Virus record (IMG/VR): IMGVR_UViG_3300025849_000018
Span: 30,928-94,927 of that record
Origin: a virus
DNA: 64,000 nt
Strand: one strand, 5' to 3'
The notes under the pieces are model-generated. The model was not told the DNA's origin. It worked only from the letters and a program-made list of their open reading frames with translations, and did no database searches. Both the position numbers and the translations under genes were made by a program. Of this stretch, positions 2,972-58,290 are shown one piece after another. The stretch's first letter is position 1. The number at the start of each line of letters is the position of its first letter.

Positions 2972-5281
2972 TTAAAATTGACCGATAACTTCGGAGAATT
3001 CTACGCCAGACCTAACAGCAACAAAGTTCAGCTGAATGAAGTTAATGGATCGAGCAGGTTTGATGTATATATCACCAATAAACTCATTGCGATCAACAAC
3101 TTCTCCAGTATTGTTTGTTTCGTCACAGATTACAACAAAATCAGTAATACCACGACGACCCTGTACATTACGCAGGAACGGTGTCACTAGATTGACGAAT
3201 GAAGCACGAGTAAATGAATCGTTGAACTCAAACAGAGTAAACTTAGCAGATGTCGCAATCGCCTTCTCAAGAACGATAAACAGACGACGAACATTGATCC
3301 GATCAAAGGCGGATGGTTTCGCCAGAAGAGTCTTGTCGCCGAATAATACAGTACCTTGTCCGGGGAAGTTGACAACTGGGTTTACACCATTTGAATAAAG
3401 TACATCGCGTTCTGCCTTCTTAGGATTCCAAGAAAGACGAAGAATGTTCTTTACTTGACCACGATTGAATCCAGCAGGTGACCACCACGCATCATTAGTG
3501 TCTGCGGTATATGCAGTCAAACCAGCAGTATCGCCGTTCAAAGGAACATACCGATATTGATCATTATACTTGTCATATTGATACTTGTATGCAGAATCAA
3601 GCACACCATAAGAAGTTGATCGAAGTGCATCTCTGAAAGCAAGGACCTGTTGCTCGGTGTCACCATAAGTCTGGTTGACAACATCAGCACGATCGGGCGA
3701 ACAGAATACAAGACAGTCTTTTCGCGTTTCAGCAATGTTATCTATCAGATAGTTGGCAAGTTGTTGTCCTACAGAACCACCACGAGATTTGCCGGTGATG
3801 AGTAGAGAGATATCGATATCTTCTGCTGACTTATAATGGTCATATGCATTAATAACATCTCCAACCGCAATGTTGGTTTCGTTTTTGGTATCACGACCGC
3901 CAACAAATGACTTACTATAGGGTGCAGTGTTAGTGGAGGACGCTAAGTTATCAGAGGTTGCAGAAGCAGCGCCAGATATGTCGTGCCCGTACCAAACATA
4001 TTCTGAAGTTGTATTCAAGACATCTTTATAGTAGTTATTTCCACCATCAAGAGTTTTCGCGTCAGTTGCGCGAGATAGTCCCTCATACACTTCAAGAGCA
4101 GTGCCAGGTATACCTGAAATCTTACCATCTTCATCATAAACAATAACGTGCATCTCATCTTGAGCGGCAGTGTTACCGTTTGCTAGTTGATAGGGTGATT
4201 GCTTGGGTGCTTTATTCACAAGACCAGCACCGCCCCAGAGTCTTCGTAGAGTTGTATCTGAGAAGTCAGAACTCAGAACAAATCGATCGCTGAAGTTGAT
4301 AACAACAGTTGCTTCGCCGTTTTCTGATTCCTCGACCACTGTTTTATTGATAACACCGATTGAGGTGATCACTAAGTCCTGTTCACCTACAGAACTATTG
4401 CCTGCTCGAACTAAGTCATTTACAGCTAAAGTTCCGATTATTGTTGTAAGCGCGCCTGAACTTGAGTTCGCATCACCATTTGCCGTCGCACCGACAGAAA
4501 TTGTAGCAGTGTTGGAACCAATTGTGAAAGCGATATTCGCTGTTTCAACGTGATCAGCAGTGTTTCCGCTGGTATTAGCAGACTGTACAGTCAATAGATT
4601 GGTGTTGCTACTAAAGGCAGCGGCACTGTCACATACTGAGATACGCAGAGAGTTACCGAGTTCTCCAGGATACTTTGCTACAAATTGAACATCTGAATCA
4701 TAGTTGCCTTCCGCGGTAATATAGTCCTCATCATTCTTTGTGATTTGAGAGGCTAGGTTTGCAATATTGGTATTTGCAATCGCATTGAATGAATAGTTGG
4801 CATCAAAGACTTGAATGTCCGCTGCGGCAACACTGTTTGCAGTAGCAGCTACAGACAGTTCAAACGCGGTATTACTAGTAACCGATGCGACGGTTGCGTC
4901 AGCTGGTATACCTGGACCAAATACAGCATCTCCAACAGCGATGCCGGTTGTGTTACTAACAGTTACAGTGGCATTAGCTGCTGTTGTTGTGGCTCCACTG
5001 AATGAAAAAGTATTACCAGTTGAGTGATGTGCGCGACTTACATATAAGGCATCAGCATATGCCAAGAAGTTTGCGGCGCTAAAAAATGTTTCGTAGTTTG
5101 CGTTAGTCGGTTTACCGAATCGGTCAACTAACTGATCTTCGTTTTGAATCAGTAGTGGTTTGTCTACTGGTCCCCAACGAAAAACACCACCGATTGCTGC
5201 TTCAGTAGTAGATACTGCTGGAATTACAGTAGTCAAATCTACTTCGGTGACATTTACGCCCGGACTAAGTTGAAAAGGCAT
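2972..5281 (-). CDS. 18: Tail sheath protein gp18 (with inserted domains)
   Basis: LSPGVNVTEVDLT, FRWGP, WWSPAGFNRG, FDRINVRRLF, IKPARSINFIQLNF. Confidence 0.97.
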   Translation of the reverse strand: MPFQLSPGVNVTEVDLTTVIPAVSTTEAAIGGVFRWGPVDKPLLIQNEDQLVDRFGKPTNANYETFFSAANFLAYADALYVSRAHHSTGNTFSFSGATTTAANATVTVSNTTGIAVGDAVFGPGIPADATVASVTSNTAFELSVAATANSVAAADIQVFDANYSFNAIANTNIANLASQITKNDEDYITAEGNYDSDVQFVAKYPGELGNSLRISVCDSAAAFSSNTNLLTVQSANTSGNTADHVETANIAFTIGSNTATISVGATANGDANSSSGALTTIIGTLAVNDLVRAGNSSVGEQDLVITSIGVINKTVVEESENGEATVVINFSDRFVLSSDFSDTTLRRLWGGAGLVNKAPKQSPYQLANGNTAAQDEMHVIVYDEDGKISGIPGTALEVYEGLSRATDAKTLDGGNNYYKDVLNTTSEYVWYGHDISGAASATSDNLASSTNTAPYSKSFVGGRDTKNETNIAVGDVINAYDHYKSAEDIDISLLITGKSRGGSVGQQLANYLIDNIAETRKDCLVFCSPDRADVVNQTYGDTEQQVLAFRDALRSTSYGVLDSAYKYQYDKYNDQYRYVPLNGDTAGLTAYTADTNDAWWSPAGFNRGQVKNILRLSWNPKKAERDVLYSNGVNPVVNFPGQGTVLFGDKTLLAKPSAFDRINVRRLFIVLEKAIATSAKFTLFEFNDSFTRASFVNLVTPFLRNVQGRRGITDFVVICDETNNTGEVVDRNEFIGDIYIKPARSINFIQLNFVAVRSGVEFSEVIGQF

Positions 5282-5355
5282 AGTGTTTTCTCCCTTTATT
5301 GGTTTTCAATTATAGCATTTTAAATTATTGTGCTTTAAGTTTTTCTTCTATTTTT

Positions 5356-5363
5356 TATTTATA
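5356..5363 (-). promoter_or_regulatory. T4-type late promoter TATAAATA
   Basis: Exact match upstream of gp18. Confidence 0.75.
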
Positions 5364-5384
5364 AGATTTGATATTTCTCATAGT

Positions 5385-7040
5385 TCACCGTTCATCGTCG
5401 GCAAAAAGAAATGCATTACCTTTTACCGCCATGGGAGGGTTATCTTCAAAGTGATCCTGCCCGTCATCAATGATTCCGAAAGGAGTTAATTCATTCATCA
5501 GTTGTTCATCATTCATTTCTCGTAACTGACTAATAGTATTTATATCAGTTAATTCTTTAAAGAATTTCTGATTAGATACCCAAGCAAAGAGTACAAGTCC
5601 CATCACAAGATCATCATGACATCCAGATTCGGCTTCCCATCCTACACCTTTTTTACTGAATGTTGACAATTCTTTAATCGTATCAAAATCATTTATTATC
5701 AGTTGGTTCTGTTCAATCAACAATTTCAGTATAGAACAACCTACCGACTTAACGGTTTTTGTTGTTCGTACACCCTTATCAGACTTTGATGAGAATCCAG
5801 TAGTTAATCGTTTCCCGCCGCGGCCGGCATTTTCAGTGAATAACATATTCTCATATTCAAAATCTTCATATAATGTACTGGAGACTTGTTCACCAATATC
5901 ATTAACCTCAACAAGAATTTGTGCTTCATTATAGAAAGTACCTATTCTATGGATTACTGAAGAATAATCCATCGGAGAAATCATATTGTCACGATATGCA
6001 CATACTTGCATATAAGGCATTTGAGTGGTGTCTATGACTTGAAATGCCGAATAATCTAATCCTTTACCGCGAGAAACATCAACCACAATAGTGTAATTGT
6101 GATCGATCACCGGTCTATAGAACATAGACAGACCATTCTTTTCTTCAATCGGTTCACGATACACAAGTTGTTTTAGTTTATTACCTGATATAAGTGTACC
6201 ACTACTACCTTGAAATTCACACTCCATTTCTTGTGCGAACTTCTCAGTGTCAAAGTCCAGCGCGGCGAGCGTTTCTTGTTTCCAATTCTCGTCGCGACCA
6301 GGAACATCATACCACATTACAGATACAAACTGATATCCATTTTTACCTTCTCGGGCACCTTCACAAGTTTTATAAAAATGATTCAATCCGTTTGGTGTAG
6401 ATGTAAGCAATATTTTTGTGGTTGTGCCTGAAGATATTGTTGGAAATACTGCGGCGAAGAATTGATCCCAGTTCGTAACGAAAGCTGTCTCGTCAATGTA
6501 TAGGAAAGATACGGATTTGCCACGAATAGCAGTAGAGGAAGTAGCGGTTGCGATGATCTTTGATCCATTTTCAAACTCTACTGATCCTTTGTTCCATTCC
6601 ACGACTCCTTGTTGTAACCATTTTGGTAATGCTTCGTAAGCTGTTTTGATACGATCCAATATTTCTCTTGCAGAGTCTCCTTTATCAGCGAGTAGAGCGA
6701 CAAGTTTATGATTATTGAAAAGAATATAATGAAGTATAAGACATACAGCAGTCGTTGTTTTACCAGACTGCCGCGCTGTAACGACACATGTTCTTCGGTT
6801 GTTTGTTGTCTTTTCAATGATATCTCTCTGATAATCATATAGATCAATAGGTATTAAACCACGATCTACATGGACTATTTGAATATATTTTTCTGAAAAA
6901 TAAATCGGATCAGATGAACAAGTTACATATTCGCGGATCATATCCTCCGTCCACGAAATATCTACACCGTGTCTTTTTAAATTGGTGTTACCCAAATACG
7001 ATCTATATTCTTCAATATCTTTAATCGGTACTGACATCAT
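5385..7040 (-). CDS. 17: Terminase large subunit gp17
   Basis: Walker A ARQSGKT, Walker B FLYIDETAF, TSTPNGLNHF, nuclease motifs VDVSRG and HDDLVM; start 7040 or 7037. Confidence 0.97.
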   Translation of the reverse strand: MMSVPIKDIEEYRSYLGNTNLKRHGVDISWTEDMIREYVTCSSDPIYFSEKYIQIVHVDRGLIPIDLYDYQRDIIEKTTNNRRTCVVTARQSGKTTTAVCLILHYILFNNHKLVALLADKGDSAREILDRIKTAYEALPKWLQQGVVEWNKGSVEFENGSKIIATATSSTAIRGKSVSFLYIDETAFVTNWDQFFAAVFPTISSGTTTKILLTSTPNGLNHFYKTCEGAREGKNGYQFVSVMWYDVPGRDENWKQETLAALDFDTEKFAQEMECEFQGSSGTLISGNKLKQLVYREPIEEKNGLSMFYRPVIDHNYTIVVDVSRGKGLDYSAFQVIDTTQMPYMQVCAYRDNMISPMDYSSVIHRIGTFYNEAQILVEVNDIGEQVSSTLYEDFEYENMLFTENAGRGGKRLTTGFSSKSDKGVRTTKTVKSVGCSILKLLIEQNQLIINDFDTIKELSTFSKKGVGWEAESGCHDDLVMGLVLFAWVSNQKFFKELTDINTISQLREMNDEQLMNELTPFGIIDDGQDHFEDNPPMAVKGNAFLFADDER

Positions 7041-7438: not shown

Positions 7439-8299
7439 TTATGCTCCATCATCTGGGAATGTTTCATCTATGTCCACTATATAACCAAAGTTTTCATCAG
7501 AAGAGATATTATTGGAAGAAACAGTCAAAGATGCGTTTGATGTAGCCGCGCCGTTTGCTGTTTGACCTGGTGTGACTGTAATTCTCGATATAACATCAGT
7601 GTTGCCAACAGCATCATCAATGTCGTTAAACAGTGTCGCATCATATAACTGAGTATTCGCGAGTTTGATGATCTCACTCTTCTTGGTAGGTCCAAAGAAG
7701 AATCCTTTCATCGTGTAATCAAAGGTAAAGATCAACGACTTTCTTTCCTCAAACGAACCTTCATACACATCATCTTGTGAGGTGCCTGTTAGAACCAGAG
7801 GAATGTCAAGAGTAATATCTGGATCAGAAATCAACTGAACTGTCGTTGTCCACTCAGGAGTAAAAAACGGTAGAATCTGTTCTATGATCTGAGTACCATC
7901 ATCAACAGTCTTTACAAAAATTGACAAAGAAAACTGAATATCATAAGGCACTGGGTTATACTGGTATCTCTTTTGATCTTCATCCGCATCTGATGGTGTC
8001 GTTACAAATCGTCGAATTGTTGGCAATTTTCTCTCAGGCGCATAACTAAACCCGGTGATTTCAAATCCCATTCTCGGTAATGTAATTGCGAATGGCTGAT
8101 CCATTGGATCGAGGTCTTGATCAACTCCATCAATACGAGCAAGAAACTTTTCTTTTGGTCCATATGCGAGAGGAACTTTGAATGATGCCTTAACATTACC
8201 ATCAGAATCTTTGCGATTAATCCACACATCGTTAAATAATGTGCCAAACAGTATGACATATTTTCGAAGTGTACCATGTGCGAAAGTTTGACCAAACAT
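7439..8299 (-). CDS. 15: Tail sheath stabilizer/completion protein gp15
   Basis: FGTLFND, KVPLAYGPKEKFLAR, LPRMGFEI, QIIEQILPFF. Confidence 0.95.
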   Translation of the reverse strand: MFGQTFAHGTLRKYVILFGTLFNDVWINRKDSDGNVKASFKVPLAYGPKEKFLARIDGVDQDLDPMDQPFAITLPRMGFEITGFSYAPERKLPTIRRFVTTPSDADEDQKRYQYNPVPYDIQFSLSIFVKTVDDGTQIIEQILPFFTPEWTTTVQLISDPDITLDIPLVLTGTSQDDVYEGSFEERKSLIFTFDYTMKGFFFGPTKKSEIIKLANTQLYDATLFNDIDDAVGNTDVISRITVTPGQTANGAATSNASLTVSSNNISSDENFGYIVDIDETFPDDGA

Positions 8300-8300: not shown

Positions 8301-9029
8301 TTAGATAGACCCTTCTGAGAAAGGATTTGTTTCGGTGAAGTCTATAATATCAGCACCGGATGACTGGAACGTAGCATTCTCGGAAAATGGATCATCAGTA
8401 GTGTAATCAGGTGCGGAAACTGGTCGTCCAGTGTTCGCGTCCATAATAATATCACCGTTCGCATATGTTGAGTCGGCGTTTGACACGGCAATATTTTCAG
8501 AATATAATTTCTCTAAATTGTCAATCTCAGGAACGCCTGTATTTAAATCTTCATGACTATATTCAAACAATTCGCAACGCAAATCATAACACTGTAAGGC
8601 ACCCATTTGATAAAAGTTAGGTGCTTCATGTTCAGCAATCTTGATAACATATACTTTACCGGTAAGTGGGAAAAATATCAAGTCACCTTCTTCAGGCCGA
8701 ACCTGTATTTCTGGCGCGCCTATTTCGTTGGAAAATACTCTCTGTGAAACAGTGAAGGTAATTTCATCACGAATCTGAATATTGAACTTAGAGAGAAAGT
8801 CACCTTCACCCTCAAACCCCTCAACATTCTTAATATACATTTCAACCAGATATGCATCATTATAGGAGGCAACGGTAACTTCTCCAAAAATATCATCTTG
8901 TTCATCAATTGTTCTCGGGCAGTAATACAAATCATGACCGTAGATTTTAATTGATTCAATGATCAAATCTTCGATTAGATTTTGTTCTGCATAACTCTGA
9001 AAATTATTGAAGAAGACGTTGGTTGTCAT
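8301..9029 (-). CDS. 14: Neck protein gp14
   Basis: EQNLIEDLIIESIKIYG, GFEGEGDFLSKF, RPEEGDLIFFP, ETNPFSE. Confidence 0.95.
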   Translation of the reverse strand: MTTNVFFNNFQSYAEQNLIEDLIIESIKIYGHDLYYCPRTIDEQDDIFGEVTVASYNDAYLVEMYIKNVEGFEGEGDFLSKFNIQIRDEITFTVSQRVFSNEIGAPEIQVRPEEGDLIFFPLTGKVYVIKIAEHEAPNFYQMGALQCYDLRCELFEYSHEDLNTGVPEIDNLEKLYSENIAVSNADSTYANGDIIMDANTGRPVSAPDYTTDDPFSENATFQSSGADIIDFTETNPFSEGSI

Positions 9030-9825: not shown

Positions 9826-10629
9826 TTATTGTCTCCAGAACTCAAGACCCCGCACATCACTTATAACTTGTGGAGGCAAAACATCCGCTGGCTTTCTACA
9901 ATAGTATTTTATTTTAGAACTGACATGATGCATATCAGACAATCCATAGACTTTATTATCCTTCTCTCTATGTTTATTATATAGATTTTTATAATCATGT
10001 TGATAATAGGGTTGTTCTATAAAATTATAGATTGATTTCATAGTCGCGTCTGTATTTTCTACTAGATCAGAATATTCAACTAAGAGTATGTTATCCTTTA
10101 ATTCGCCCGACAAAGCATTTTTCAATCCTGTATATGCTCTTCCTAGAGGACCATCTGATGCGATATACTGACAACGTGTAAAATCATTCAGAGGAAGATT
10201 ATTGGATTGTAGAAACCTATCAATAAAATTCAATTTCTTGTCTTGATTTCGCGAAATCATCGCGATGAAAGAAGTTAACACTTCGTCGAGATTTCGCACA
10301 GTACATATAATCTTTGGATTTTTTATATCAAAATATTTTGAAATATATTCGGGTCGGTGTGTCCAACTTCTATTCTTATCAAAAATAATATCTTCTTTTA
10401 CATCATTATAATAATTGTATAATGAAGATTGCAACATGCTTTTTTTATACGCGGGTTTTGGATATGATTTATACAGGTCATTATTTTCTATAGAAGATTC
10501 AAGTGCGACGATCGAACCACATACAGGAGAACTTGGACCACTATAAAATGTAGGATTTTGATTTAACAAAGCAGACAACATTGAACTGCCGCTTCGCGGA
10601 AGTCCAGACAAAAAATAATAAGTTTTCAT
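9826..10629 (-). CDS. PAPS-dependent sulfotransferase family protein
   Basis: N-terminal 5'-PSB loop GLPRSGSS, DKNRSW, 3'-PB-like CTVRNLDEVLTS, VEYSDL. Confidence 0.85.
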   Translation of the reverse strand: MKTYYFLSGLPRSGSSMLSALLNQNPTFYSGPSSPVCGSIVALESSIENNDLYKSYPKPAYKKSMLQSSLYNYYNDVKEDIIFDKNRSWTHRPEYISKYFDIKNPKIICTVRNLDEVLTSFIAMISRNQDKKLNFIDRFLQSNNLPLNDFTRCQYIASDGPLGRAYTGLKNALSGELKDNILLVEYSDLVENTDATMKSIYNFIEQPYYQHDYKNLYNKHREKDNKVYGLSDMHHVSSKIKYYCRKPADVLPPQVISDVRGLEFWRQ

Positions 10630-10632: not shown

Positions 10633-11172
10633 CTACTTCTCAAAGAAAATACTCAGACTAAAACGATACTTTGGACCTAGTCTCGATTGCGGCCGGATTG
10701 TATGTGGAATTTCTCCATCAAACCAAATGATTCTTCCTGGCACAAATCGCGATCCAAAGATAATATCGTGGTTCTCGTTCTTATCATAGAACAATGTCTC
10801 ACCCGACCAATGATCTTGCCAATCCATATTTACATAATATAGAAAAACATTTTCGTTGATGTGTGTATGTGTCCAATGTGTGTTTGTACATACATCATTG
10901 TTTACAATACAACGAATGAATTTGTCGGGATTAATTTTCTCGTGTAAAGGATGTCCCTCTACAAAATCAGAAAAGAAATTGATTGAATTGAGTTTTTCGG
11001 GAGTCCACCGAGAGAACATATATTGTTCGGAATTGTCAGTATTATCAGACCACCCTATCTGATAAGGACATTTTTTCACCGACTCTTGTATATCAAATCT
11101 TTTTGCTAAACTAAAGACATTATCATATACATCAACTCCTTTTATAGGAGAGTAGTGTGTTATCTTTTTCAT
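10633..11172 (-). CDS. 2OG-Fe(II) oxygenase-like protein
   Basis: HTH...LYYVNMDW..WSGETLFY...PGRIIWFDGEIPH..RP...RFS; jelly-roll His/Arg motifs, first motif HxH rather than HxD. Confidence 0.8.
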   Translation of the reverse strand: MKKITHYSPIKGVDVYDNVFSLAKRFDIQESVKKCPYQIGWSDNTDNSEQYMFSRWTPEKLNSINFFSDFVEGHPLHEKINPDKFIRCIVNNDVCTNTHWTHTHINENVFLYYVNMDWQDHWSGETLFYDKNENHDIIFGSRFVPGRIIWFDGEIPHTIRPQSRLGPKYRFSLSIFFEK

Positions 11173-11199: not shown

Positions 11200-11228
11200 A
11201 TCATATCACAAAAATATATTACTGTCAA
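11200..11228 (-). promoter_or_regulatory. sigma70-type promoter for oxygenase-sulfotransferase pair
   Basis: Minus strand TTGACA (11228-11223), 17-nt spacer, TATGAT (11205-11200), with extended -10 TGn. Confidence 0.75.
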
Positions 11229-12445
11229 TCTAAAATATCCAGATGATGTTTTACGAATGGTGTGTTCCAAATATATGCTGAACCAGATGAACCACCATTA
11301 TCGTCATCCAGATAAGAACCAACCACGATTCTACCTGATCCTACCGCAACTGATCTACCGAACCTGTCATTTGACGCAGCATCACTGGCAACTATCTTGG
11401 CGAGTTGAGTGCCATCCAGATCAAAGATATATGATGAACCAGAATCATCACCATCACCATAAGCACCAACCACGATTCTACCTGATCCTACCGCAACTGA
11501 GAAACCGAAACTGTCACCCGACGCACCATCACTGGCAGTTATCTTGGCTAGTTGGGTGCCATCCAGATCAAAGATATATGCTGAACCAGTCTGACCACCA
11601 TTGACGTCATCACCATAAGAACCAACCACGATTCTACCTGATCCTACCGCAACTGAGTGACCGAACCTGTCACCCGCCGCAGCATCACTGGCAGTTATCT
11701 TGGTTAGTTGGGTGCCATCCAGATCAAAGATATATGCTGAACCAGACTCACTACCATCATCGTCATCCAGACTAGCACCAACCACGATTCTACCTGATCC
11801 TATCGCAACTGAGGTACCGAACCTGTCACCATTGTTAGCATCACTGGCAGTTATCTTGGTTAGTTGGGTACCATCCAGATCAAAGATATATGCTGAACCA
11901 GATGCAGAACCATCATCGTCATCCACCAAAGCACCAACCACGATTCTACCTGATCCTACCGCAACTATTTCCCCGAAATAGTCAGTCGCCGCACCATCAC
12001 TTGATTTTATCTTGGCGAGTTGGGTGCCATCCAGATCAAAGATATATGCTGAACCAGACTGACTACCATTATCGTCATCACCCGAAGCACCAACCACGAT
12101 TCTGCCTGATCCTATCGCAACTGAGACACCGAAAAAGTCACTTCCCGCAGCATCACTGGCAGTCATCTTGGCGATTTGAGTGCCATCCAGATCATAGATA
12201 TATGCTGAACCAGACTGACTACCATTATCGTCATTACTATAAGCACCAACACAGATTCTACCTGATCCTACCGCAACTGAGTAACCGAACTCGTCACTTG
12301 ACGCACCATCACTGGCAGTTATCTTGGTTTCATTGCTGGGTGTAGTGGTATCATCATATTCATCAGTAACACCCATATCCTCTTCATAAAAACTTAGGTC
12401 TCTGCTTAAAAAACTACCAAATGTAGATATATTTCTATAAGGCAT
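11225..12445 (-). CDS. FG-GAP (integrin-alpha-like) 7-blade beta-propeller protein A
   Basis: Seven ~52-aa repeats KIxASD..D.FG.SVAVGSGRIVVGA..D...GSAYIFDLDGTQ. Confidence 0.85.
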   Translation of the reverse strand: MPYRNISTFGSFLSRDLSFYEEDMGVTDEYDDTTTPSNETKITASDGASSDEFGYSVAVGSGRICVGAYSNDDNGSQSGSAYIYDLDGTQIAKMTASDAAGSDFFGVSVAIGSGRIVVGASGDDDNGSQSGSAYIFDLDGTQLAKIKSSDGAATDYFGEIVAVGSGRIVVGALVDDDDGSASGSAYIFDLDGTQLTKITASDANNGDRFGTSVAIGSGRIVVGASLDDDDGSESGSAYIFDLDGTQLTKITASDAAAGDRFGHSVAVGSGRIVVGSYGDDVNGGQTGSAYIFDLDGTQLAKITASDGASGDSFGFSVAVGSGRIVVGAYGDGDDSGSSYIFDLDGTQLAKIVASDAASNDRFGRSVAVGSGRIVVGSYLDDDNGGSSGSAYIWNTPFVKHHLDILD

Positions 12446-13066: not shown

Positions 13067-13067
13067 A

Positions 13068-15511: not shown

Positions 15512-15529
15512 TAAATTCTCCAATACATA

Positions 15530-15558
15530 TTGACAAATGAGTTAAATATAAGTATAAT
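15530..15558 (+). promoter_or_regulatory. Perfect-consensus sigma70 promoter for glycosyltransferase-methyltransferase pair
   Basis: TTGACA 15530-15535, 17-nt spacer, TATAAT 15553-15558. Confidence 0.85.
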
Positions 15559-21041: not shown

Positions 21042-22918
<1,877 letters not shown>

Positions 22919-29228: not shown

Positions 29229-31823
<2,595 letters not shown>

Positions 31824-40653: not shown

Positions 40654-40666
40654 TCAATTACTTCCT

Positions 40667-47575: not shown

Positions 47576-47610
47576 CTTTTATCTCAGTGGTTAAAGGTTC
47601 TATATGTTAT

Positions 47611-50600
47611 TTATGAAATACTAGCAGTATAAAATGTGTTTTGATTCTCAAACAAACTAAAACTAACAAACATCTCAGTCAAACGAACTATATCTACTGT
47701 AATATCAAGTGAAGCTCCAATATCAGATGATGTCGTACTAAAATATTTACCAAAAGGTTTTGTGCCTGAAACATGTAATACATCAACTAAAACTTTACGA
47801 TAAGTATCAAAAGGTAATGAGGTTAATACTTGATAAGAATACTCTTGATAAAAATCATTGTCATGTAGGTATTTATCACTACTTAAAAACCCCCTGCGAC
47901 TTGTAAAGTAACCAGGAGCAATGCCCTGTTTTCCAAGACCTAGTTTGAAAGATGATGTGACGGTCGGATCACGATTAAGCGTAGCGTTTACTGTCTCACC
48001 ATCACTGTAACCAAATCCAGAGTCAATCAAGGTTGTAGTAGAAATAAAATTATTACCAGACAGCGCCTCTGAAGTGACATTCGCGTTTAACCCAGTCCTA
48101 GGATAGTTTCTAAATTCGTTGACATATGACAATGTAACTGTAAGACCCGTTTCAAGACTTGTAAAAGTTTCACCTACAACAAAATCGTTTGTTGATGGAT
48201 CGTCGTCCGAAATGGATTGAAAACCTCTTGATGTGGGTAGTGTAATTCTAGTTGCGTTGATAGTCTGTGTATTTAGGTCATGTGAGGTGATTACCGCCTT
48301 GGCATAACCGGTGTTTCCTTCAATCGTTTCGCCTACGACAAAGTTTTGACCGACACCCGAATATTTTAATTCATAATCATATCTTTCCAAATAATAAGAC
48401 TTTGGTTCGTGTATTATAAAAATGGGGTCTTTGGCGTATAGTTCGCCTTGAGTGGTCTGAACAATGAACTCAACAGAACCAATCGAAACATCTTCGAAGG
48501 TAAGACCGGTCGTGGCCGTATAATCAATATTGGCAGCGCCACCGCCATAAGTAGTAGAGACATCTAAATTTGCAGTGTTGTATCCAGTAATATTACCTAT
48601 AATAGTATTAGAGTAAAAATTGGTATAAGTTACCTGGTTGTTGCGACTACTGACGGTAAAGTTTGCTGGTGTGCGATAACTAAAAACTCTACCATTTGAA
48701 TAAGATCCGGTTTCAACGCCGTATGTATTGGCATTTTCATAGAATATATTATTGATACTGATTACACCAACTTGAAACTCACTTATTTTTTCAATAGCAT
48801 ATGACTGTGCCGTAGATCGCGAATATATTGGGCGATCTGTTCTGAACGCGCCTGCGCCCGGATTTGTTGTTACTGTTAGTTGATACAATGGAGGTTCAGT
48901 TTTAATTTCACTGACTTTAGCACTGGCATATTCTTGATCGGAATCATTCAGTTGATATATTGTTTCATTCACTGTGATCGCATCATTGGCGCCGATTGTA
49001 TAATCAATTTTAAAAGTGTCTTTGACTCCGATTACATTTGCTGTGGCAGAAATATCAGTATTGGTTGATATTTCGCTTGACAATGTATCGTTTTTTAAGG
49101 ATAATGTATTAACATCGCCTATATAGTCTGTATTAAAGGAAGAAGCTCCTGCTGGAATGGGAAGGGTGGTGTAGAGTTTAAGATCGTCAAAATCGCCAGT
49201 TACTCTGCCAGTGTTATATAATCCAAGGTTTAAATCATTATTATATGTCTGAGTCCCCGGTAAAGTATCTGAAGCAACCAAAAGACCATTTAAATATAAG
49301 TATAAATTATTTCCGCTCTTTACTAACGTATAGTGGTTCCAGTCTGTCCAAGTGGGTTGTGTAGAAGCAACAGTAGTTTGCCAACCTCCGCTCACAGTGT
49401 GCCGTATCTGCAAGCTTGGAGTGGTTGAATTGGGTGCTGTTGCACCTATGTGGATTAACTGATTGCTGTATCCAGTGCCTATGACTGCGGATGTATCTCC
49501 AAAAGCAGAGCCGTCTTGTTTGAACCAAACCGCCCACATAAAATCACTGTTGTTATTCGTGGGTGAAGTTGCAAAGCGCAAAGTGTCGCCTGATGTATAT
49601 TCGAACGCGGAATTGATCACGCCATCTTGACCAGTTTCGTATGTTGGTGTAGCGCCAGAAGTGATGTTTATAGAACCACTGCTACTTCCATCGTTGTCTA
49701 AATTGCCGTTGAACTTATTCCAAACATAAGGGGTTGGGGCGATCGGTACAAAACTATCATAGTCCATTACAAATCCAGTGGCTGAAGACTTTGTTACTCT
49801 TCCCGCATAAACCACAGCATTGGTTACAGAATCGATAATCTCAACATTAGAAGATACTGTAAATGAACTCATATCTTCATTGGTATTAGCTAAATTTACA
49901 CTGACCAGATTTTGTTTGATTGTTTCAAATTGTTTAAACGCTGTCTGATGGTAAAACCACTCCTCGTTCTCGTTGGTCAAGTCATTCATTAAAAGTATTG
50001 ATTCTGATCCTAGAATGCTAGCATTCGCCGAATAACCCCAACCACCATTTATTAACTCAAACTCTACCAAACCTGTTTTGTCTACTACCGAGTCAACACG
50101 CAGTTTACCTCCACGGCCATCACCGTCAGTGAAAGCGATGATGTCACCCAATTTGTATCCTTCGTCATTTTTAACAATCGTTAACGATGAGAGTGATCCG
50201 AGAATACGCGCACTTACATTAGTAGATAAATCATATGTTCTTACATCTTCACCTGTTTGAAAGTTACCTGAAACATTCTCAAGATAAACGACTTCAATAA
50301 ATCTAGAATTCTTCTTGACACGAACCAGTCTATCAGCATAGGCAGTTGATCCAGTTATAGTGCCAGTGATTGTCTGACCAATCAACTGTACATTGGTTTC
50401 ATTCGGATCAATTTCAAGATATTGTACATTGACAAACTCATTGTCTGATGCTTTCAACAAATCATCAGCAGGATAATATATACCAGCTTCAATACCGTAT
50501 ATTAATTTGAAAAATAAATCTACTGCTCTCTCGGTGCCCTTTGCCCTATAAAAGTCTAAAGCATTTTTGATAAAGAGTCTTTTGTTTGACGCGGTGTTGA

Positions 50601-51048
50601 ACTGAATATCAGGTAGATACTTGTTCTTAAATGAAACAATGAACTTCTCAATAGTCGTGTCAATGTCACGAATATCTACTAACTTTCTTGCGAGGTATTC
50701 GTGATTAAAACTTTCAGCGGTGTTAATGTATGATGAACCACCGGAAGAACTAGTACAAAGAGTCAAGTCATTACAGAGAGTGTTACACCTAAACTGATCC
50801 AGTTTATCCAGCTGAACCATATAATAAGTTGAATACACAGCAATGATTTTACCAGTGGTATTTCCCTGCGTGACTGTATCGTTTTTATTGAAATTTGTTG
50901 TATCTTCAAGTGTCAGTAGTTGAAGATTATTTTCTGCCCACTCATAATATGCCTTTACAAAGGTAACAAACATTTTTCCTTCGTCACGATAAAACGCAGG
51001 AAACTGTCCCTCAACAAGAGGACTGATAAAGTCTTCAATCTGACGCAT
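47611..51048 (-). CDS. 7: Baseplate wedge initiator, gp7-like, with inserted LamG domain
   Basis: QFPAFYRD..FV.FVKAYYEW; DFYRAKGT..LFFKLIYG; LHDNDFYQEYSY..LHVSGTK.FG. Confidence 0.8.
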   Translation of the reverse strand: MRQIEDFISPLVEGQFPAFYRDEGKMFVTFVKAYYEWAENNLQLLTLEDTTNFNKNDTVTQGNTTGKIIAVYSTYYMVQLDKLDQFRCNTLCNDLTLCTSSSGGSSYINTAESFNHEYLARKLVDIRDIDTTIEKFIVSFKNKYLPDIQFNTASNKRLFIKNALDFYRAKGTERAVDLFFKLIYGIEAGIYYPADDLLKASDNEFVNVQYLEIDPNETNVQLIGQTITGTITGSTAYADRLVRVKKNSRFIEVVYLENVSGNFQTGEDVRTYDLSTNVSARILGSLSSLTIVKNDEGYKLGDIIAFTDGDGRGGKLRVDSVVDKTGLVEFELINGGWGYSANASILGSESILLMNDLTNENEEWFYHQTAFKQFETIKQNLVSVNLANTNEDMSSFTVSSNVEIIDSVTNAVVYAGRVTKSSATGFVMDYDSFVPIAPTPYVWNKFNGNLDNDGSSSGSINITSGATPTYETGQDGVINSAFEYTSGDTLRFATSPTNNNSDFMWAVWFKQDGSAFGDTSAVIGTGYSNQLIHIGATAPNSTTPSLQIRHTVSGGWQTTVASTQPTWTDWNHYTLVKSGNNLYLYLNGLLVASDTLPGTQTYNNDLNLGLYNTGRVTGDFDDLKLYTTLPIPAGASSFNTDYIGDVNTLSLKNDTLSSEISTNTDISATANVIGVKDTFKIDYTIGANDAITVNETIYQLNDSDQEYASAKVSEIKTEPPLYQLTVTTNPGAGAFRTDRPIYSRSTAQSYAIEKISEFQVGVISINNIFYENANTYGVETGSYSNGRVFSYRTPANFTVSSRNNQVTYTNFYSNTIIGNITGYNTANLDVSTTYGGGAANIDYTATTGLTFEDVSIGSVEFIVQTTQGELYAKDPIFIIHEPKSYYLERYDYELKYSGVGQNFVVGETIEGNTGYAKAVITSHDLNTQTINATRITLPTSRGFQSISDDDPSTNDFVVGETFTSLETGLTVTLSYVNEFRNYPRTGLNANVTSEALSGNNFISTTTLIDSGFGYSDGETVNATLNRDPTVTSSFKLGLGKQGIAPGYFTSRRGFLSSDKYLHDNDFYQEYSYQVLTSLPFDTYRKVLVDVLHVSGTKPFGKYFSTTSSDIGASLDITVDIVRLTEMFVSFSLFENQNTFYTASIS

Positions 51049-52823
51049 TAGAGTCTGACCTGTTCAACAGTCACGGTAATATCTTCTGGACGGATTTTTA
51101 GAATGGTTCTTCGCTCTGACTTCACATCTAGATCAAAAGTTTTAGCAAAAATATTAAAAGATTTATCAACCAGTTCTGTAGGCGCAAATTGATTTATTAC
51201 TAAAACGCCTGTCTCATAATTAACTGTACCAATGTTACGAAGAGCAACGTGGGTTCCGAATGATGTTGTGCCGATATTCAGTATACCACCGCCGTCATCC
51301 TCAATGAAACATTCGTGTCCGCTAAAGATAAATTTAGAAGATGATATGATAGAAGTTTCGTTGGCACCGTGAACACTTGGTAACTTAGGTATATTGTCTT
51401 TTAACTTGACTCCAAAATCAACGGTGAAGTTTGTAGGTTTCTTAACCACTGGCACAATCGTTTTGACAGCGAGAATCTCAGTATCGTTACTAACGATTGA
51501 TATCTGAGAACTATCAATACTAGCAAGAAGGCGACTATAACGAAGCGTCTTATTAAATCCATTCAAGGTGCTCGCATTATAATTTTGAATTGATGACTTG
51601 ACAATGAACTGTATATCGTTTACTGTCAACTGAGTTTGGTTCAGGTTATAACGAACTTTAGAATCCACTTTAATGTAAGTATATTCGGGTTTCACGAATA
51701 TGGGATCAATGGCCAATGGCGAACGCTTCTTTATGAAACTAGCGAATGCCGCTCTTCGTGAAGGAGGTAACTCATCTGTTGATTTCAAGTCAACAGCAAT
51801 AATCACTTTACCAAACTTCGGCGGCACGAACTCTTCACCACCATAAGCTGAGACATCATTGATTTCAGTAAACTGGTTAGACAGCAGTGTTTCATAATCC
51901 CTTGATGTAACAACGCGCTCTTGTGTAGTGAACGCACGAGGAGCATTGAACTTAATGGAGTCTAGACTTTCTGAGATTGTTCCACCCTTAGCAGCCTCGT
52001 TCACAACAACATTTGTAATGAGACTTGTTCCTACTTTGCCATCAGCTGAGAACAACGCAATCCCGTTAGGTAACTCACCGTTACAAGCGCGATACTGAAT
52101 CGTTACGATTGCTCTATCTTTTGGTTTGCGACCAATGATACCATCACCAAATACAATCTCATATCGGTCGTTGTCTGCCGGCTGAATAAAGAATACCTCA
52201 GATGTTGATCCAAGACCAAACAGAGAATCTGATCTGGTATATGACTTGAGAGTGCCGCCGTTATCTTCAAGCACACCTACAAGAAGACTTGTAACATCAA
52301 TTGTTTTATTTGATAATATAAATCGTTGTGAGTCATCGTTATTGACTACAAATGAATCTGAAACATAATCGCCTTCGTATAAATTAATATTCTCTGCGAT
52401 GAAAGTATTAGCCGCAACACCCGGCTTCGTAACAACATTATCACCAGTTACAAAAGTATAGTTGCGATTGCCCGATGTTCCAGTGAACGAGGTGCCGCGA
52501 GGAATAATAACTGAGGCCGCGTCACCATCATAGATAGATAAATTGACATTCGCAGTAGCAGACCTAAAAGAACGAGGTAAATAGTTAAGTTCTTTTGTGT
52601 GAGATATAACAGAATCGCGCAGCTGAGCGCTGTCAAGAAACATTTCACTTCCTAACATATTCAAATAAAATCCATTAAGATAACTATTATATGAAAGAAT
52701 ATCTAAAAGAACATTGATGTTTGACCCTTCAAAATCATAATCTTGAAAGACAGTTTGTTCTTTTAGATAATTTTTTAAATTTCCCTTGATTGAATCAAAA
52801 TCAAGTGTTGTTAAGTCAGTCAT
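51048..52823 (-). CDS. 6: Baseplate wedge subunit gp6
   Basis: LDFDSIK.NLK..DYDFEGS..LLDILSYN..FLDSAQLRDSV; YEIVFGDG; IKFNAPR.F.TQ.RVVT..DY. Confidence 0.95.
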   Translation of the reverse strand: MTDLTTLDFDSIKGNLKNYLKEQTVFQDYDFEGSNINVLLDILSYNSYLNGFYLNMLGSEMFLDSAQLRDSVISHTKELNYLPRSFRSATANVNLSIYDGDAASVIIPRGTSFTGTSGNRNYTFVTGDNVVTKPGVAANTFIAENINLYEGDYVSDSFVVNNDDSQRFILSNKTIDVTSLLVGVLEDNGGTLKSYTRSDSLFGLGSTSEVFFIQPADNDRYEIVFGDGIIGRKPKDRAIVTIQYRACNGELPNGIALFSADGKVGTSLITNVVVNEAAKGGTISESLDSIKFNAPRAFTTQERVVTSRDYETLLSNQFTEINDVSAYGGEEFVPPKFGKVIIAVDLKSTDELPPSRRAAFASFIKKRSPLAIDPIFVKPEYTYIKVDSKVRYNLNQTQLTVNDIQFIVKSSIQNYNASTLNGFNKTLRYSRLLASIDSSQISIVSNDTEILAVKTIVPVVKKPTNFTVDFGVKLKDNIPKLPSVHGANETSIISSSKFIFSGHECFIEDDGGGILNIGTTSFGTHVALRNIGTVNYETGVLVINQFAPTELVDKSFNIFAKTFDLDVKSERRTILKIRPEDITVTVEQVRL

Positions 52824-53268: not shown

Positions 53269-53844
53269 TTATGCGTTTTTCGGACCACCGGTGTCGCCGG
53301 AAATAGTAAATCCATCCGAGAATGTATGAGTGTGCGCGGCGAAATCAAGACCCGAAGTTGATCCAGTTGTACCAGAAGCACCGCCACCATCCGTGAAGAA
53401 GTGTTCGTGCGTCTTCAGATTAATAGTATCAGCAATGACATCCGTTGTACCTGTGACTGTTGCTCCAGTTATATTGCCTGTTGTAGTAATATTTGCTGCC
53501 CCGAAATTTGCAGTTGTAGCGCCACTCACTGTAACCGAAGAACCAGAAACAGTAATTGTCACTGTCCCGTTTGTAATTTTTACTGTTTGATTTGCATCTA
53601 TTTCGATATGCCCCGCAGAAGCAGCATTAGGATATGGATTATATGCGCCAGCAGGATTGTTTGCGCTAAATGTACTGTTAGCAGTTAATCGAATGCTTCG
53701 AAGTTCTATATCTAAATCTTCAAGTTCTTCTGGTATTGCTGCTGACTCTGCATCTTTAGTTACTTTTAATGTTTGAAATTCAGTAACTAAATCATCAATC
53801 TCGCTTTGAAAACTTGTTACAAATTCCGGTGTAGTATATGCCAT
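53269..53844 (-). CDS. Putative spike/tip protein with HxH motifs
   Basis: Beta-helix-like ITTTGNITGATVTGTTDV..LKTHEH...HTHT..GDTGGP; start ATG 53844. Confidence 0.55.
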   Translation of the reverse strand: MAYTTPEFVTSFQSEIDDLVTEFQTLKVTKDAESAAIPEELEDLDIELRSIRLTANSTFSANNPAGAYNPYPNAASAGHIEIDANQTVKITNGTVTITVSGSSVTVSGATTANFGAANITTTGNITGATVTGTTDVIADTINLKTHEHFFTDGGGASGTTGSTSGLDFAAHTHTFSDGFTISGDTGGPKNA

Positions 53845-53850
53845 TATCAA

Positions 53851-57373: not shown

Positions 57374-57381
57374 ACTCTAGA

Positions 57382-58290
57382 TTACCTCATAGATTCGGTG
57401 AGTTGGCTGCTCAAGGTCTTTGAGTTGAGCTTGTCAACTAAAAAGATTTCTTTTTTCTTATCATTTAATTCAACTTCATAATCATAATAAGAAACTGCCT
57501 TTTGATAGACAACCTCGGCCGCGGGAATTACTTGTCTATCTGTCTTAACCGAGGCAGCATTTACTGTTGCTGTTACACCGGCATCGTTGGTAATAGTATA
57601 GTTACTACCGGATGTAAAATCACCTAATACATTCTTAACATTGCAAACAGATGTATTCGCAAAAACAATTTCGCCGTGATTATATTCGTCTCTCTCAACT
57701 ATGTCACCAAGTGTAAATGCTGTTGTCATTGGAGTCGTAAAACCAAACGACATAATCTTATTTGTGTTATATAAAATGGTTTCCTTGGATCGTTCGTAAC
57801 CGACAACTCCAATTGCCGATACTAAAGGTGCCCAATACTTTTTAACATTACTAACTGAATCTGGGTCAATATTTTCACCTAGACTAAATGTCGGTGACAG
57901 TGCTTCATATCCGCTTTTAGATAAGATTGTATCATCAGATTGATAATCACTCTTATAATGAATAATTTTTCTAATCGCATTGCGGCGAGAACCATACTTC
58001 TTAACGATATATTGATCAAAGTCAAGTCCAGACATAGAGGTGTCATAGTGTGGATCAATAATGTCATTTGCCAGATAAACCAACCAATCGTAGTTAACAT
58101 CGTCGTAGTAGTTAAAAGCAAGTTCATCAACCGTTTCATCGCGCTTCATTGTGTGAGTGTAAAATGCCGTCAAGTATTTTTTGACCGATGTTGACAGTCC
58201 AACTCTCTTCAAAATATTAATTGAAAGTTGTCCCTTATATTGCGTCAAGGGAAACTTACTGAAATACGATCTTTGCTTGTTAATCGCCAT
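57382..58290 (-). CDS. 53: Baseplate wedge subunit gp53
   Basis: YFSKFP..Y, LA..YY..YDWLV.LANDI.DP, YI.KKYGS, YDYE.ELN..K..I. Confidence 0.88.
   Translation of the reverse strand: MAINKQRSYFSKFPLTQYKGQLSINILKRVGLSTSVKKYLTAFYTHTMKRDETVDELAFNYYDDVNYDWLVYLANDIIDPHYDTSMSGLDFDQYIVKKYGSRRNAIRKIIHYKSDYQSDDTILSKSGYEALSPTFSLGENIDPDSVSNVKKYWAPLVSAIGVVGYERSKETILYNTNKIMSFGFTTPMTTAFTLGDIVERDEYNHGEIVFANTSVCNVKNVLGDFTSGSNYTITNDAGVTATVNAASVKTDRQVIPAAEVVYQKAVSYYDYEVELNDKKKEIFLVDKLNSKTLSSQLTESMR

Follow-up and report, generated by a model that had tools for sequence, protein, structure and literature searches.

Exposed virion proteins encoded in the window, the whole 64,000-nucleotide stretch of viral DNA analysed here, carry a real, roughly 2-fold excess of the dipeptide Ala-Asn (AN), with composition, local composition and paralogous repeats excluded as its cause. 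Pooled over 15 non-collagen exterior proteins, AN occurred 108 times against 52 expected from composition shuffles (z about 8), which removes A/N composition as the explanation; it ranked first among the 400 dipeptides (runner-up, z 3.7), and the reverse dipeptide NA was not enriched in the same 15 proteins (46 vs 52 expected). When shuffling was confined to 20-aa blocks so that local composition was kept, the excess was unchanged (z 7.5); segments of paralogous similarity hold only 2 of 110 AN sites, so repeats are not its source, and all eight codon pairs for AN are used about proportionately, which places the signal at the protein level. The remaining proteins of the window contain 21 AN against 29 expected.

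An initial annotation had noted this pattern by hand count, and its numbers were reproduced exactly for the 290-aa fibre-like protein and for the portal, large terminase and tail tube, each recounted as 0 (Table 1). For the tail sheath, said to hold 13 sites with 9 in residues ~100-270 and none in the C-terminal core, we found 9 of 13 at residues 102-271, in the variable outer domains, the last site at 509 and zero in 510-769. Three strings that had been placed in the gp14 and gp15 tails belong elsewhere: TANSTVANT to the 290-aa protein, SANTSGNT to the sheath and TANTALANST to the 917-aa protein. Among 80 IMG/VR sheath homologues, AN numbered 798 against 464 expected, with a density of 2-4 per 100 aa in residues 50-300 versus 0.05-0.35 in the C-terminal core, and in the AF2 model of the sheath the variable AN sites lie mostly in strand-adjacent loops. 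Homologues of gp15 (45 sequences; 112 vs 42.5 expected) and members of the 290-aa family (41 sequences; 352 vs 126 expected) were AN-rich, and 63 portal homologues held 42 where 85 were expected (ratio 0.49). Within the 290-aa family one AN site never varies, three more are conserved in most members and the others turn over; in the AF2 monomer model a helix leads into an unfolded, shaft-like stretch at residues 37-178, which contains 8 AN, and a C-terminal beta-sandwich follows. Solvent exposure of AN sites was assigned from domain position and secondary structure.

Table 1. Features of the window, with AN dipeptides observed and, in brackets, expected
Feature	Position	Strand	Evidence or remark	AN observed (expected)
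Portal gp20, internal control	727..2352	-	Pfam	0
Tail tube gp19, covered control	2435..2941	-	Pfam	0
Tail sheath gp18, 769 aa	2972..5281	-	Pfam sheath domains	13 (6.9)
Large terminase, non-virion control	5385..7040	-	Pfam	0
gp15	7439..8299	-	Pfam	2
gp14-like neck protein	8301..9029	-	Pfam	2
Sulfotransferase, 267 aa, accessory	9826..10629	-	PF13469, PF00685	
Small 2OG-Fe(II) oxygenase-like protein, 179 aa, prolyl-hydroxylase type	10633..11172	-	PF13640, 21 bits	
Sigma70-type promoter-like site, TTGACA-17-TATGAT with TG	11200..11228	-	directly upstream of oxygenase/sulfotransferase pair	
Three FG-GAP beta-propeller genes	11225..15523	-	Pfam; between the enzyme pairs	1 (1.1), 1 (1.2), 2 (2.3)
Perfect sigma70 consensus, TTGACA-17-TATAAT	15530..15558	+	41 nt upstream of glycosyltransferase start	
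Three-domain glycosyltransferase, 877 aa	15600..18233	+	Pfam; antisense to neighbours	
FkbM-family methyltransferase, 221 aa	18230..18895	+	PF05050; 4-nt overlap with glycosyltransferase stop	
Two collagen-like fibre genes, 238 aa and 625 aa	20325..22918	-	Pfam Collagen, Peptidase_S74	0
1390-aa structural protein	22932..27104	-		13 (6.1)
Collagen-like fibre, 864 aa	29229..31823	-	147 GXY triplets; Y = Thr 74, Lys 18	2
552-aa fibre with S74 chaperone domain	31878..33536	-		5 (4.0)
635-aa fibre	34294..36201	-	z 4.7	13 (4.0)
290-aa fibre-like protein	36837..37709	-	z 6.3	12 (2.6)
917-aa baseplate/fibre protein	37900..40653	-		11 (4.3)
DUF4815 protein, 1592 aa	40667..45445	-		15 (7.8)
Baseplate wedge gp8-like, gp7-like, gp6	45449..52823	-		5 (3.5), 9 (4.9), 3 (2.2)
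193-aa protein	53269..53850	-		5 (1.4)

Enrichment was seen for A-N, A-N-T and A-N-x-[ST]. In the window A-N-x-[ST] occurred 35 times against 10.3 expected (3.4-fold), and plain N-x-S/T was marginal (161 vs 140, z 2.1), so that the earlier statement that A-N-T/S and N-x-S/T are frequent stands for the forms led by Ala and hardly for the general sequon. Enrichment of A-N-x-[ST] reached 2.8-3.6x in the window, the IMG/VR relatives G001 (93% complete) and G002 (96% complete) and phage Cr30, with none in AN-neutral phages. An x-Ser/Thr followed 34% of AN sites compared to 25% of other Asn (Fisher P = 2e-6; 32% vs 21% in the window alone), and no such effect was detected for A-D, A-S, A-T, A-Q, A-G or A-K. 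The form N-T-x-T was in excess only in Cr30 (16/5.6), with 8 vs 8.9 in the window, 22/16 in G001 and 32/29 in G002. The residue context of AN is strand-like, with hydrophobics alternating in phase with Ala and Thr in phase with Asn. Judged from these sequence patterns, AN, often as T-A-N-T or A-N-x-S/T, has the character of a short motif under selection and is restricted to the exposed parts of sheath, neck, baseplate and fibre proteins.

Using orthologue sets picked by homology alone, we compared observed/expected AN ratios between phages. AN-rich were G001 (2.02), G002 (1.90), DLP6 (1.84), Cr30 (1.87) and, more weakly, phiM12 (1.40), whereas OC (1.12), phiM9 (1.09), HTVC008M (1.08), Syn19 (0.94), T4 (0.84) and K490 (0.74) were neutral. 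The portal plus terminase tree placed the six AN-rich phages (window, G001, G002, DLP6, Cr30 and phiM12) together on one side of one branch (SH-aLRT 87), and the AN excess appears to be an inherited trait of one T4-like clade that includes the window, phiM12, Cr30, DLP6 and many uncultured relatives. Sheath, DUF4815, gp7 and gp8 are AN-rich in this clade and neutral in sister lineages; DUF4815 orthologues, for instance, gave 27/12.3 in G001, 22/13.1 in G002, 10/10.0 in OC and 5/6.5 in phiM9. The sites lie mostly in non-conserved alignment columns, indicating positional turnover, and with column frequencies controlled AN showed a greater excess than any other dipeptide in the sheath and was surpassed by only one in the 290-aa family. 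AN thus looks selected as a unit at the protein level, with Ala and Asn gained together.

The initial annotation read AN(T/S) as an acceptor tag for four co-located enzymes that would coat the particle. The enzymes are truly encoded within the structural region, with Pfam confirming the three-domain glycosyltransferase, the FkbM methyltransferase and the sulfotransferase, and the AN signal on exposed proteins is genuine; the 2OG-Fe(II) oxygenase is present as a PF13640 match, but a weak one, short of the Pfam cut-off of 27 bits. Against the tag, equal enrichment in relatives lacking the enzymes, which the annotation itself had named as refuting evidence, is what was found. In G002 no match was obtained for the three-domain glycosyltransferase, GT2, FkbM, Sulfotransfer_3 or 2OG-FeII_Oxy_3, yet its AN ratio is 1.85-1.90 (rank 1-2), and G001, at 2.0-2.07, lacks the glycosyltransferase, FkbM and sulfotransferase. 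The individual searches agreed: no three-domain glycosyltransferase homologue in G001 or G002 at E<=0.001, no FkbM family in G001, G002 or G003, no PF13469 sulfotransferase in G001, G002, G003 or DLP6, and no 2OG oxygenase family in G002 or G003. Because G002 without all four enzymes and G001 without three are equally AN-rich, the AN excess is independent of the window's four enzymes, whose families do not track AN sites. In flanks of up to 10 kb around AN-rich sheath genes, moreover, sulfotransferase, oxygenase or glycosyltransferase homologues were found at 0/80 loci and FkbM at 1/80, and the collagen-like fibres and FG-GAP propellers adjacent to the enzymes are not AN-rich. The suggested Asn hydroxylation fares no better, as the best PDB matches of the 2OG protein are HIF and bacterial prolyl hydroxylases (weak, E 0.01-0.3) rather than Asn hydroxylases. 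We rejected tagging of AN by the local enzymes, which is very improbable.

Our preferred reading, at somewhat short of an even chance, is that two separable things are present: AN would be a surface-structure motif of the clade, and the local enzymes most likely build or alter a glycan on a target other than AN. Structurally, the small Ala would pack inward and an exposed Asn would sit at strand ends and in loops, often with Thr/Ser at +2, a picture that the strand-like residue context and the strand-adjacent loop sites of the sheath fit. Three considerations run counter to it: a purely structural cause should not be clade-specific in orthologues of the same fold; a fold-independent, surface-restricted, position-shifting motif is the pattern to be expected if a trans-acting factor recognised it; and x-Ser/Thr is specifically more frequent after AN than after other Asn.

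These features would also suit an alternative that we consider unlikely, in which A-N(-x-S/T) is the acceptor for an Asn-directed modification, most plausibly N-glycosylation, by a writer conserved clade-wide rather than by local genes. The leading candidate would be a stand-alone GT1/GT4-like transferase, whose glycan might then be built upon by variable enzymes such as the window's. The motif is specific to the clade, limited to surfaces, co-selected and shifting in position, with A-N-x-[ST] enriched and AN significantly associated with the sequon, and GT1 orthologues (36-63% identity) occur in G001, G002, G003, DLP6, Cr30 and phiM12 and are absent from T4, Syn19, K490, HTVC008M and phiM9. 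In many members GT1 forms an operon with heptose-pathway genes, adjoining rnh; its neighbours encode a GHMP kinase of HddA-like type, an epimerase/dehydratase and a cytidylyltransferase-like protein, in Cr30 a heptose 7-phosphate kinase and a phosphoheptose isomerase are annotated at this place, and a cytidylyltransferase-like homologue (51% identity) lies on the window's contig. However, phage OC, with AN at only 1.12-1.19 (rank 55-107), carries both a GT1 orthologue (38% identity) and a homologue of FkbM, DLP6 and phiM12 are AN-rich without the kinase, epimerase and nucleotidyltransferase, and since the AN trait arose once on the tree, shared ancestry confounds its association with any gene of the clade. 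GT1 is located among replication genes, where DNA or another target fits equally well, and two AN sites in three lack S/T at +2. Pfam scans covered 40 of the window's 48 proteins, with all those at 2972-58290 and every glycosyltransferase-like protein among them, and gave GT1, GT2 and GT21-like domains only and no GT41, the family of the cytoplasmic N-glycosyltransferases (HMW1C/NGT) that use N-x-S/T acceptors, about 47% of the phage genome lying off the contig.

We know of no phage virion shown to be N-glycosylated. In the chlorovirus capsid motifs NTGT, NTET and NTAT, the acceptor Asn is preceded by Ala or Gly. The chlorovirus capsid protein (PBCV-1 Vp54), N-glycosylated by virus-encoded cytoplasmic enzymes, offers a precedent for the Asn-directed alternative, and its soluble enzymes include the early-expressed three-domain glycosyltransferase/methyltransferase A064R (PMC9614988, PMC5408694), with atypical acceptor sites NTGT, NTET, NTAT and NIPG (PMC9614988). 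The window may resemble this system in its virus-borne three-domain glycosyltransferase plus methyltransferase and in short Asn motifs on the particle surface with Thr following. Chlorovirus glycans, however, are chemically proven at a few capsid sites, whereas the window motif is known from sequence and is scattered over a dozen proteins of tail, baseplate and fibres, the distribution of the local enzymes does not follow it, and the chlorovirus-type N-T-x-T is not enriched. The only proven phage particle glycosylation is, to our knowledge, that of mycobacteriophages, reportedly O-linked on Ser/Thr-rich C-terminal extensions of siphovirus capsid and tail-tube proteins, with the glycosyltransferase genes said to adjoin those capsid and tail-tube genes. 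There, glycosyltransferases encoded by the phage put sugars on proteins of the virion (Freeman et al. 2023, Cell Host Microbe 31:1216, as cited in PMC12801897), whereas the window comes from a T4-like myovirus and has Asn as its candidate residue, in a motif that is scattered.

The gene order of the window, gp5-gp25-gp6-gp7-gp8-DUF4815-fibres-collagen-like fibres-GT/MT-FG-GAP-oxygenase/sulfotransferase-gp13-gp14-gp15-terminase-gp18-gp19-gp20, has a hypervariable block, made up of fibres and sugar enzymes, inserted between baseplate and neck modules of a T4-like core. Structural genes are preceded by TATAAATA late-promoter-like boxes (14 vs 4.5 expected), and both enzyme pairs, glycosyltransferase with FkbM and sulfotransferase with oxygenase, look accessory to the hypervariable fibre cluster because they carry sigma70-type consensus promoters instead and because glycosyltransferase homologues at IMG/VR loci sit in fibre clusters, an arrangement that recurs on a 201-kb contig. 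The glycosyltransferase has GT1/GT4-like (201-323), GT2 (441-575) and GT-A-like (729-859) domains and 1777 homologues, many with an FkbM fusion; its domains are of generic GT1/GT2 types, with solved relatives that make polysaccharides and teichoic acids.

Such enzymes may remodel the glycans of the host envelope (O-chain, capsule or EPS) while infection proceeds, for instance to block superinfection, a possibility that we entertain at well below even chances. The multi-domain glycosyltransferase with its methyltransferase resembles polymerising and terminating enzymes of polysaccharide pathways, its nearest solved GT2 relatives have polysaccharides and teichoic acids as substrates, and its homologues are named 'glycosyltransferase involved in cell wall biosynthesis' in their sources. 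The sigma70 consensus promoters make early expression by host polymerase likely. Host-envelope remodelling is the usual reading of hypervariable-region glycosyltransferases in pelagi- and cyanomyophages, whose host-recognition cluster similarly forms a large hypervariable baseplate-neck block of tail fibres, glycosyltransferases and sugar-related genes, the glycosyltransferases being assigned in pelagimyophages to host O-chain modification; that work reported no virion-protein sequence motif, and HTVC008M has no AN excess (PMC7029224). On the other side, no transporter or lipid-carrier genes were seen near the enzymes, and a cellular origin of the glycosyltransferase family is unsupported because the one long 'bacterial' contig that was inspected, bearing a homologue, is phage-like.

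Somewhat less probable, in our view, is that the glycosyltransferase and methyltransferase, perhaps with the oxygenase and sulfotransferase, modify Thr, or Lys/Pro after hydroxylation, in the G-X-Y repeats of the neighbouring collagen-like fibres, for which Bacillus BclA and mimivirus L230 may serve as models. The three collagen-like genes contain 257 GXY triplets, with Y = Thr in 124 and Lys in 32; the 238-aa and 625-aa fibres contain GFT, GSK, GDT and GTT triplets and almost no Pro (Y = Thr in 50/110; 14 GSK). Collagen-like ORFs adjoin glycosyltransferase homologues in 27/34 IMG/VR loci of at least 12 kb, and also in L170, compared to 5/33 sheath loci that hold such ORFs, the oxygenase belongs to a prolyl/lysyl-hydroxylase-type Pfam family, albeit with a match below the cut-off, and a neighbouring protein has a sub-threshold BclA_C match. 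L230, a lysyl hydroxylase and glucosyltransferase, acts on viral collagen-like proteins of low proline content, hydroxylating Lys and adding glucose, and in Bacillus anthracis BclA oligosaccharides are attached to the collagen-like region (PMC9614988). The window may parallel these systems in having low-proline G-X-Y proteins with Thr and Lys at Y near a 2OG oxygenase and glycosyltransferases, but its oxygenase is a stand-alone 179-aa protein with a weak prolyl-hydroxylase match, and its glycosyltransferase domains are generic GT1/GT2, with relatives acting on polysaccharides, not of the collagen GT25 type. Furthermore, G001 has long collagen-like fibres without such a glycosyltransferase, the association may merely reflect shared location in the fibre cluster, and early-type promoters are unexpected for enzymes acting on late proteins, although chlorovirus glycosyltransferase genes are also early (PMC5408694).

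Collectively, under the preferred reading of two separable things, the local enzymes would make or modify a glycan elsewhere, on the neighbouring Thr/Lys-rich collagen-like fibres or on the host envelope, and the clade would build hydrophilic outer surfaces with AN, at most a putative modification site.

In the 15 non-collagen exterior proteins of the window, pooled, the Ala-Asn dipeptide (AN) was observed 108 times compared to 52 expected (z about 8), ranking first among the 400 dipeptides with the next-best at z 3.7. The reverse pair NA stood at 46 vs 52 expected in the same proteins, and AN at 21 vs 29 expected in the remaining window proteins. Every AN count given in the initial annotation was reproduced; three strings quoted there had been assigned to the wrong proteins, which leaves the main point unaffected. 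Within-protein shuffles excluded amino-acid composition as the cause, and shuffling in 20-residue blocks left the outcome unchanged (z 7.5), so domains rich in both Ala and Asn do not explain the excess, an account also excluded by the preponderance of AN (108) over NA (46). All eight GCN-AAY codon pairs occurred at about the frequencies that codon usage predicts, which places the signal in the protein rather than in a DNA-level motif, and since paralogous similarity covered just 2 of the 110 AN sites, the excess is not a product of internal repeats or shared modules; the TG, GF and FT excesses, unlike that of AN, were merely collagen repeats. The accompanying proposal of N-x-S/T enrichment held in part, the plain form being barely enriched (z 2.1) and the AN-containing forms well above expectation (A-N-T, 30 vs 5.5; A-N-x-[ST], 35 vs 10.3). 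The AN excess is a solid observation and, to our knowledge, is absent from the literature.

The excess extends beyond this phage. Across 80 IMG/VR sheath homologues (47-72% identity), AN reached 798 vs 464 expected and was concentrated in the variable outer domains, whereas the accompanying portals were depleted (42 vs 85 expected). Among complete or near-complete genomes, with virion sets chosen solely by homology to the window, observed/expected ratios were high in the IMG/VR relatives G001 (2.02) and G002 (1.90), DLP6 (1.84), Cr30 (1.87) and phiM12 (1.40), and neutral in Ochrobactrum phage OC (1.12), phiM9 (1.09), HTVC008M (1.08), Syn19 (0.94), T4 (0.84) and K490 (0.74). The latter six exclude the excess as a generic property of T4-like virions. 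The result was the same for hand-curated virion sets, in which AN ranked first or second of 400 in each AN-rich phage, and this agreement with the homology-only sets excluded a bias from hand-picking. The contrast persisted in orthologues of the same fold, namely the sheath, DUF4815, gp7-like and gp8-like proteins. On a portal and terminase tree a single change suffices for the six AN-rich phages (branch SH-aLRT 87), and the AN excess is thus a clade trait with one origin. Two other dipeptide biases were observed. The tail tube of the window together with 76 homologues (loci L009-L088) carried NA at twice expectation (131 vs about 64) and AN at expectation, the NA excess probably reflecting conserved sites; in HTVC008M structural proteins (L151-L153), Phe-Glu (54 vs 19) and Thr-Leu (155 vs 91) were strongly over-represented, possibly through a repeat, which shows that other lineages own different top dipeptides.

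The positions of AN were mostly not fixed. The sheath alignment contained three conserved AN sites, and 436 of 803 occurrences fell in columns in which AN was shared by under 20% of the sequences; the family of the 290-aa fibre-like protein behaved in the same way, with AN enriched in 41 of 41 members. When adjacent pairs were compared to the expectation from their two column frequencies, AN exceeded prediction by more than any other dipeptide in the sheath (689 vs 574) and ranked second in the 290-aa family, with NT adjoining it in both rankings, so the two residues tend to be acquired as a pair. In the residues flanking AN, hydrophobic side chains alternated in phase with Ala, and Thr lay in phase with Asn. 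Ser or Thr at +2 was more frequent at AN sites (34%) than at other Asn residues (25%, P = 2e-6), and the pairs A-D, A-S, A-T, A-Q, A-G and A-K showed no such effect. In structure models read for secondary structure only, most variable AN sites of the sheath lay in loops flanking strands, and most AN sites of the 290-aa protein lay within a stretch unfolded in the monomer model, as a trimeric shaft would be.

The window comes from an uncultured T4-like myovirus (94.9-kb IMG/VR record, estimated 53% complete) and holds the structural half of it. By sheath, the nearest cultured phage is Stenotrophomonas phage DLP6 (56% identity); in the portal and terminase tree the window pairs with Sinorhizobium phage phiM12, for which a cryo-EM map exists. 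The minus strand of the window encodes, in order, the portal, tube, sheath, terminase, gp15, gp14 and gp13, a hypervariable block, and then DUF4815, gp8-, gp7- and gp6-like proteins, gp25 and gp5. The block contains a sulfotransferase, a small 2OG oxygenase-like protein, three FG-GAP propellers, a three-domain glycosyltransferase (GT) and an FkbM methyltransferase on the plus strand, and collagen-like and further fibres, a neighbourhood that fits the host-recognition cluster of pelagi- and cyanomyophages (PMC7029224). Three of the fibre proteins share an N-terminus, and in two of them a longer pattern probably marks a common attachment module; the glycine-triplet run of a 654-aa ORF at the window end is unlike the collagen-like fibres in composition.

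Coordinates of the features discussed, by record
Feature	Record	Coordinates	Strand	Remarks
Tail tube	window	2435-2941
Three-domain GT	window	15600-18233	+	877 aa; overlaps FkbM gene at 18230-18233
FkbM methyltransferase	window	18230-18895	+
Two collagen-like fibre genes	window	20325-22918	-	238 aa and 625 aa; G-X-Y triplets
Collagen-like fibre	window	29229-31823	-	G-X-Y triplets; N-terminus Met-Ala-Asn, MAN-x-x-Q-I-K-R-S
Fibre protein	window	31878-33536		N-terminus Met-Ala-Asn
Fibre protein	window	34294-36201		N-terminus Met-Ala-Asn, MAN-x-x-Q-I-K-R-S
290-aa fibre-like protein	window	36837-37709	-
Open-ended 654-aa ORF	window	62038-63999	+	runs off window end; 20 terminal G-A-S / G-V-A / G-T-S triplets
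Putative heptose operon beside rnh	G001	72559-75968		cytidylyltransferase-like, epimerase/dehydratase, GT1, HddA-like kinase
Putative heptose operon beside rnh	G002	37361-40688		cytidylyltransferase-like, epimerase/dehydratase, GT1, HddA-like kinase
Putative heptose operon beside rnh	Cr30	2793-6532		cytidylyltransferase-like, epimerase/dehydratase, GT1, HddA-like kinase, GmhA
HExxH protein (150-195 aa)	window's own contig (G000)	12218-12745		outside window; invariant A-H-E-x-V-H-x-K-Q
HExxH protein (150-195 aa)	G001 (= L097:5111-5686)	119111-119686		invariant A-H-E-x-V-H-x-K-Q

The initial annotation had taken AN(T/S) to be an acceptor tag written by these co-located enzymes, and had named equal enrichment in relatives lacking them as the result that would count against it. 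That is what was found: G001 and G002 equal the window in AN richness, yet G002 (96% complete) had no match to the three-domain GT, GT2 above noise, FkbM, Sulfotransfer_3 or 2OG-FeII_Oxy_3, and G001 (93% complete) none to the three-domain GT, GT2 above noise, FkbM or Sulfotransfer_3, which excludes these enzymes as the cause. Within up to 10 kb flanking the 80 sheath loci, the sulfotransferase, oxygenase and GT were found in none and an FkbM homologue in only one. The oxygenase weakly matched prolyl rather than Asn hydroxylases. The proposal that the adjacent enzymes supply the mechanism is thus left without support. Structural genes were preceded by TATAAATA boxes, unlike the enzyme genes; a perfect TTGACA-17-TATAAT lay upstream of the three-domain GT and TTGACA-17-TATGAT upstream of the oxygenase.

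The three-domain GT belongs to a family of 1777 homologues, often fused to FkbM: the two genes are separate in the window, many relatives (P0176, P0180, P0183 and others) have them joined into one protein of 1100-1350 aa, and some homologues carry a duplicated N-terminal GT-B module. Its IMG/VR homologues are sited in fibre clusters, with a collagen-like ORF in 27 of 34 GT loci (at least 12 kb) compared to 5 of 33 sheath loci. In L170 (CAZIWB010000010.1, 201,532 bp), binned as a Cellvibrionaceae MAG, an antisense GT homologue is surrounded by collagen-like fibres, a DUF4815 gene, an S74-chaperone fibre and DUF4376. This shared arrangement marks the contig as phage-like, and apparently the genome of a T4-like phage, or a prophage, was assigned to a bacterial MAG during binning; with the sole long 'MAG' contig read being phage-like, a bacterial origin of the GT is not supported. 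The collagen-like fibres of the window are rich in G-X-Thr and G-Ser-Lys and nearly Pro-free, and modification of collagen-like proteins has precedents in mimivirus L230 and Bacillus BclA (PMC9614988). Since G001 encodes collagen-like fibres but not this GT, the association is only suggestive as a clue to the target. The published view for such pelagimyophage genes is modification of the host O-chain (PMC7029224), and the enzymes may act on either the collagen-like fibres or the O-chain; we rank neither over the other.

A gene distributed more nearly like the AN excess encodes a stand-alone GT1/GT4-like transferase (GT1), present in G001, G002, the further IMG/VR relative G003, DLP6, Cr30 and phiM12 (36-63% identity) and absent from T4, Syn19, K490, HTVC008M and phiM9. 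An HddA-like kinase adjoins it in G001, G002, G003 and Cr30, as does an epimerase/dehydratase in G001, G002 and Cr30; genes for a cytidylyltransferase-like protein and GmhA are close by in some of the phages, and rnh is adjacent in G001, G002 and phiM12. In Cr30 the GT1 gene is gp009. This conserved operon is a putative phage nucleotide-heptose pathway. The window's contig has only the cytidylyltransferase-like gene of this set, and the others may lie in the half of the genome that the contig does not cover. GT1 is the best candidate writer should AN be a modification site. It is not sufficient for the signature, as OC has an orthologue without it, nor is the heptose cassette a necessary partner, as DLP6 and phiM12 do without its kinase, epimerase and nucleotidyltransferase. 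Moreover, with a trait of single origin any clade gene co-occurs. A 191-aa protein that belongs to no Pfam family and carries a metalloprotease-like HExxH motif, invariant among its homologues, was found in 8 of 8 AN-rich and 0 of 7 AN-neutral records, and has more than 390 homologues, on phage contigs of about 165 kb; despite this perfect match we set it aside as an explanation and treat it as a clade marker.

It is conceivable, though we consider it unlikely, that in the phiM12/Cr30/DLP6-type clade an A-N(-x-S/T) sequon on the exposed sheath, neck, baseplate and fibres is N-modified by a clade-conserved cytoplasmic enzyme, with GT1 and phage-made nucleotide-heptose as candidates, and that variable fibre-cluster enzymes diversify the coat. 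If true, bacteriophages would have their first example of an Asn-linked glycan coat, and chlorovirus capsid glycosylation would gain a parallel among the viruses of prokaryotes. The closest proven system is the chlorovirus capsid, where soluble enzymes encoded by the virus N-glycosylate Asn residues in atypical motifs (PMC9614988, PMC5408694). Its N-T-x-T motif, however, is not enriched in the window. Mycobacteriophage virion glycosylation is O-linked, in contrast to Asn as the candidate residue in the AN phages.

Collectively, a motif whose two- to three-fold enrichment is confined to the particle exterior and to a single clade, and which selection maintains while its positions shift, needs explaining, and the cultured members Cr30 (Caulobacter), phiM12 (Sinorhizobium) and DLP6 (Stenotrophomonas) make the question directly testable. 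If AN is not a modification site, it would be a clean case of virion proteins with a surface grammar particular to their lineage, and a warning that sugar enzymes nearby are not evidence of virion glycosylation. If it is one, it would represent an undescribed Asn-linked phage coat, with consequences for host range, for how well particles withstand proteases and grazers, and for the way antibodies recognise therapeutic phages such as DLP6.
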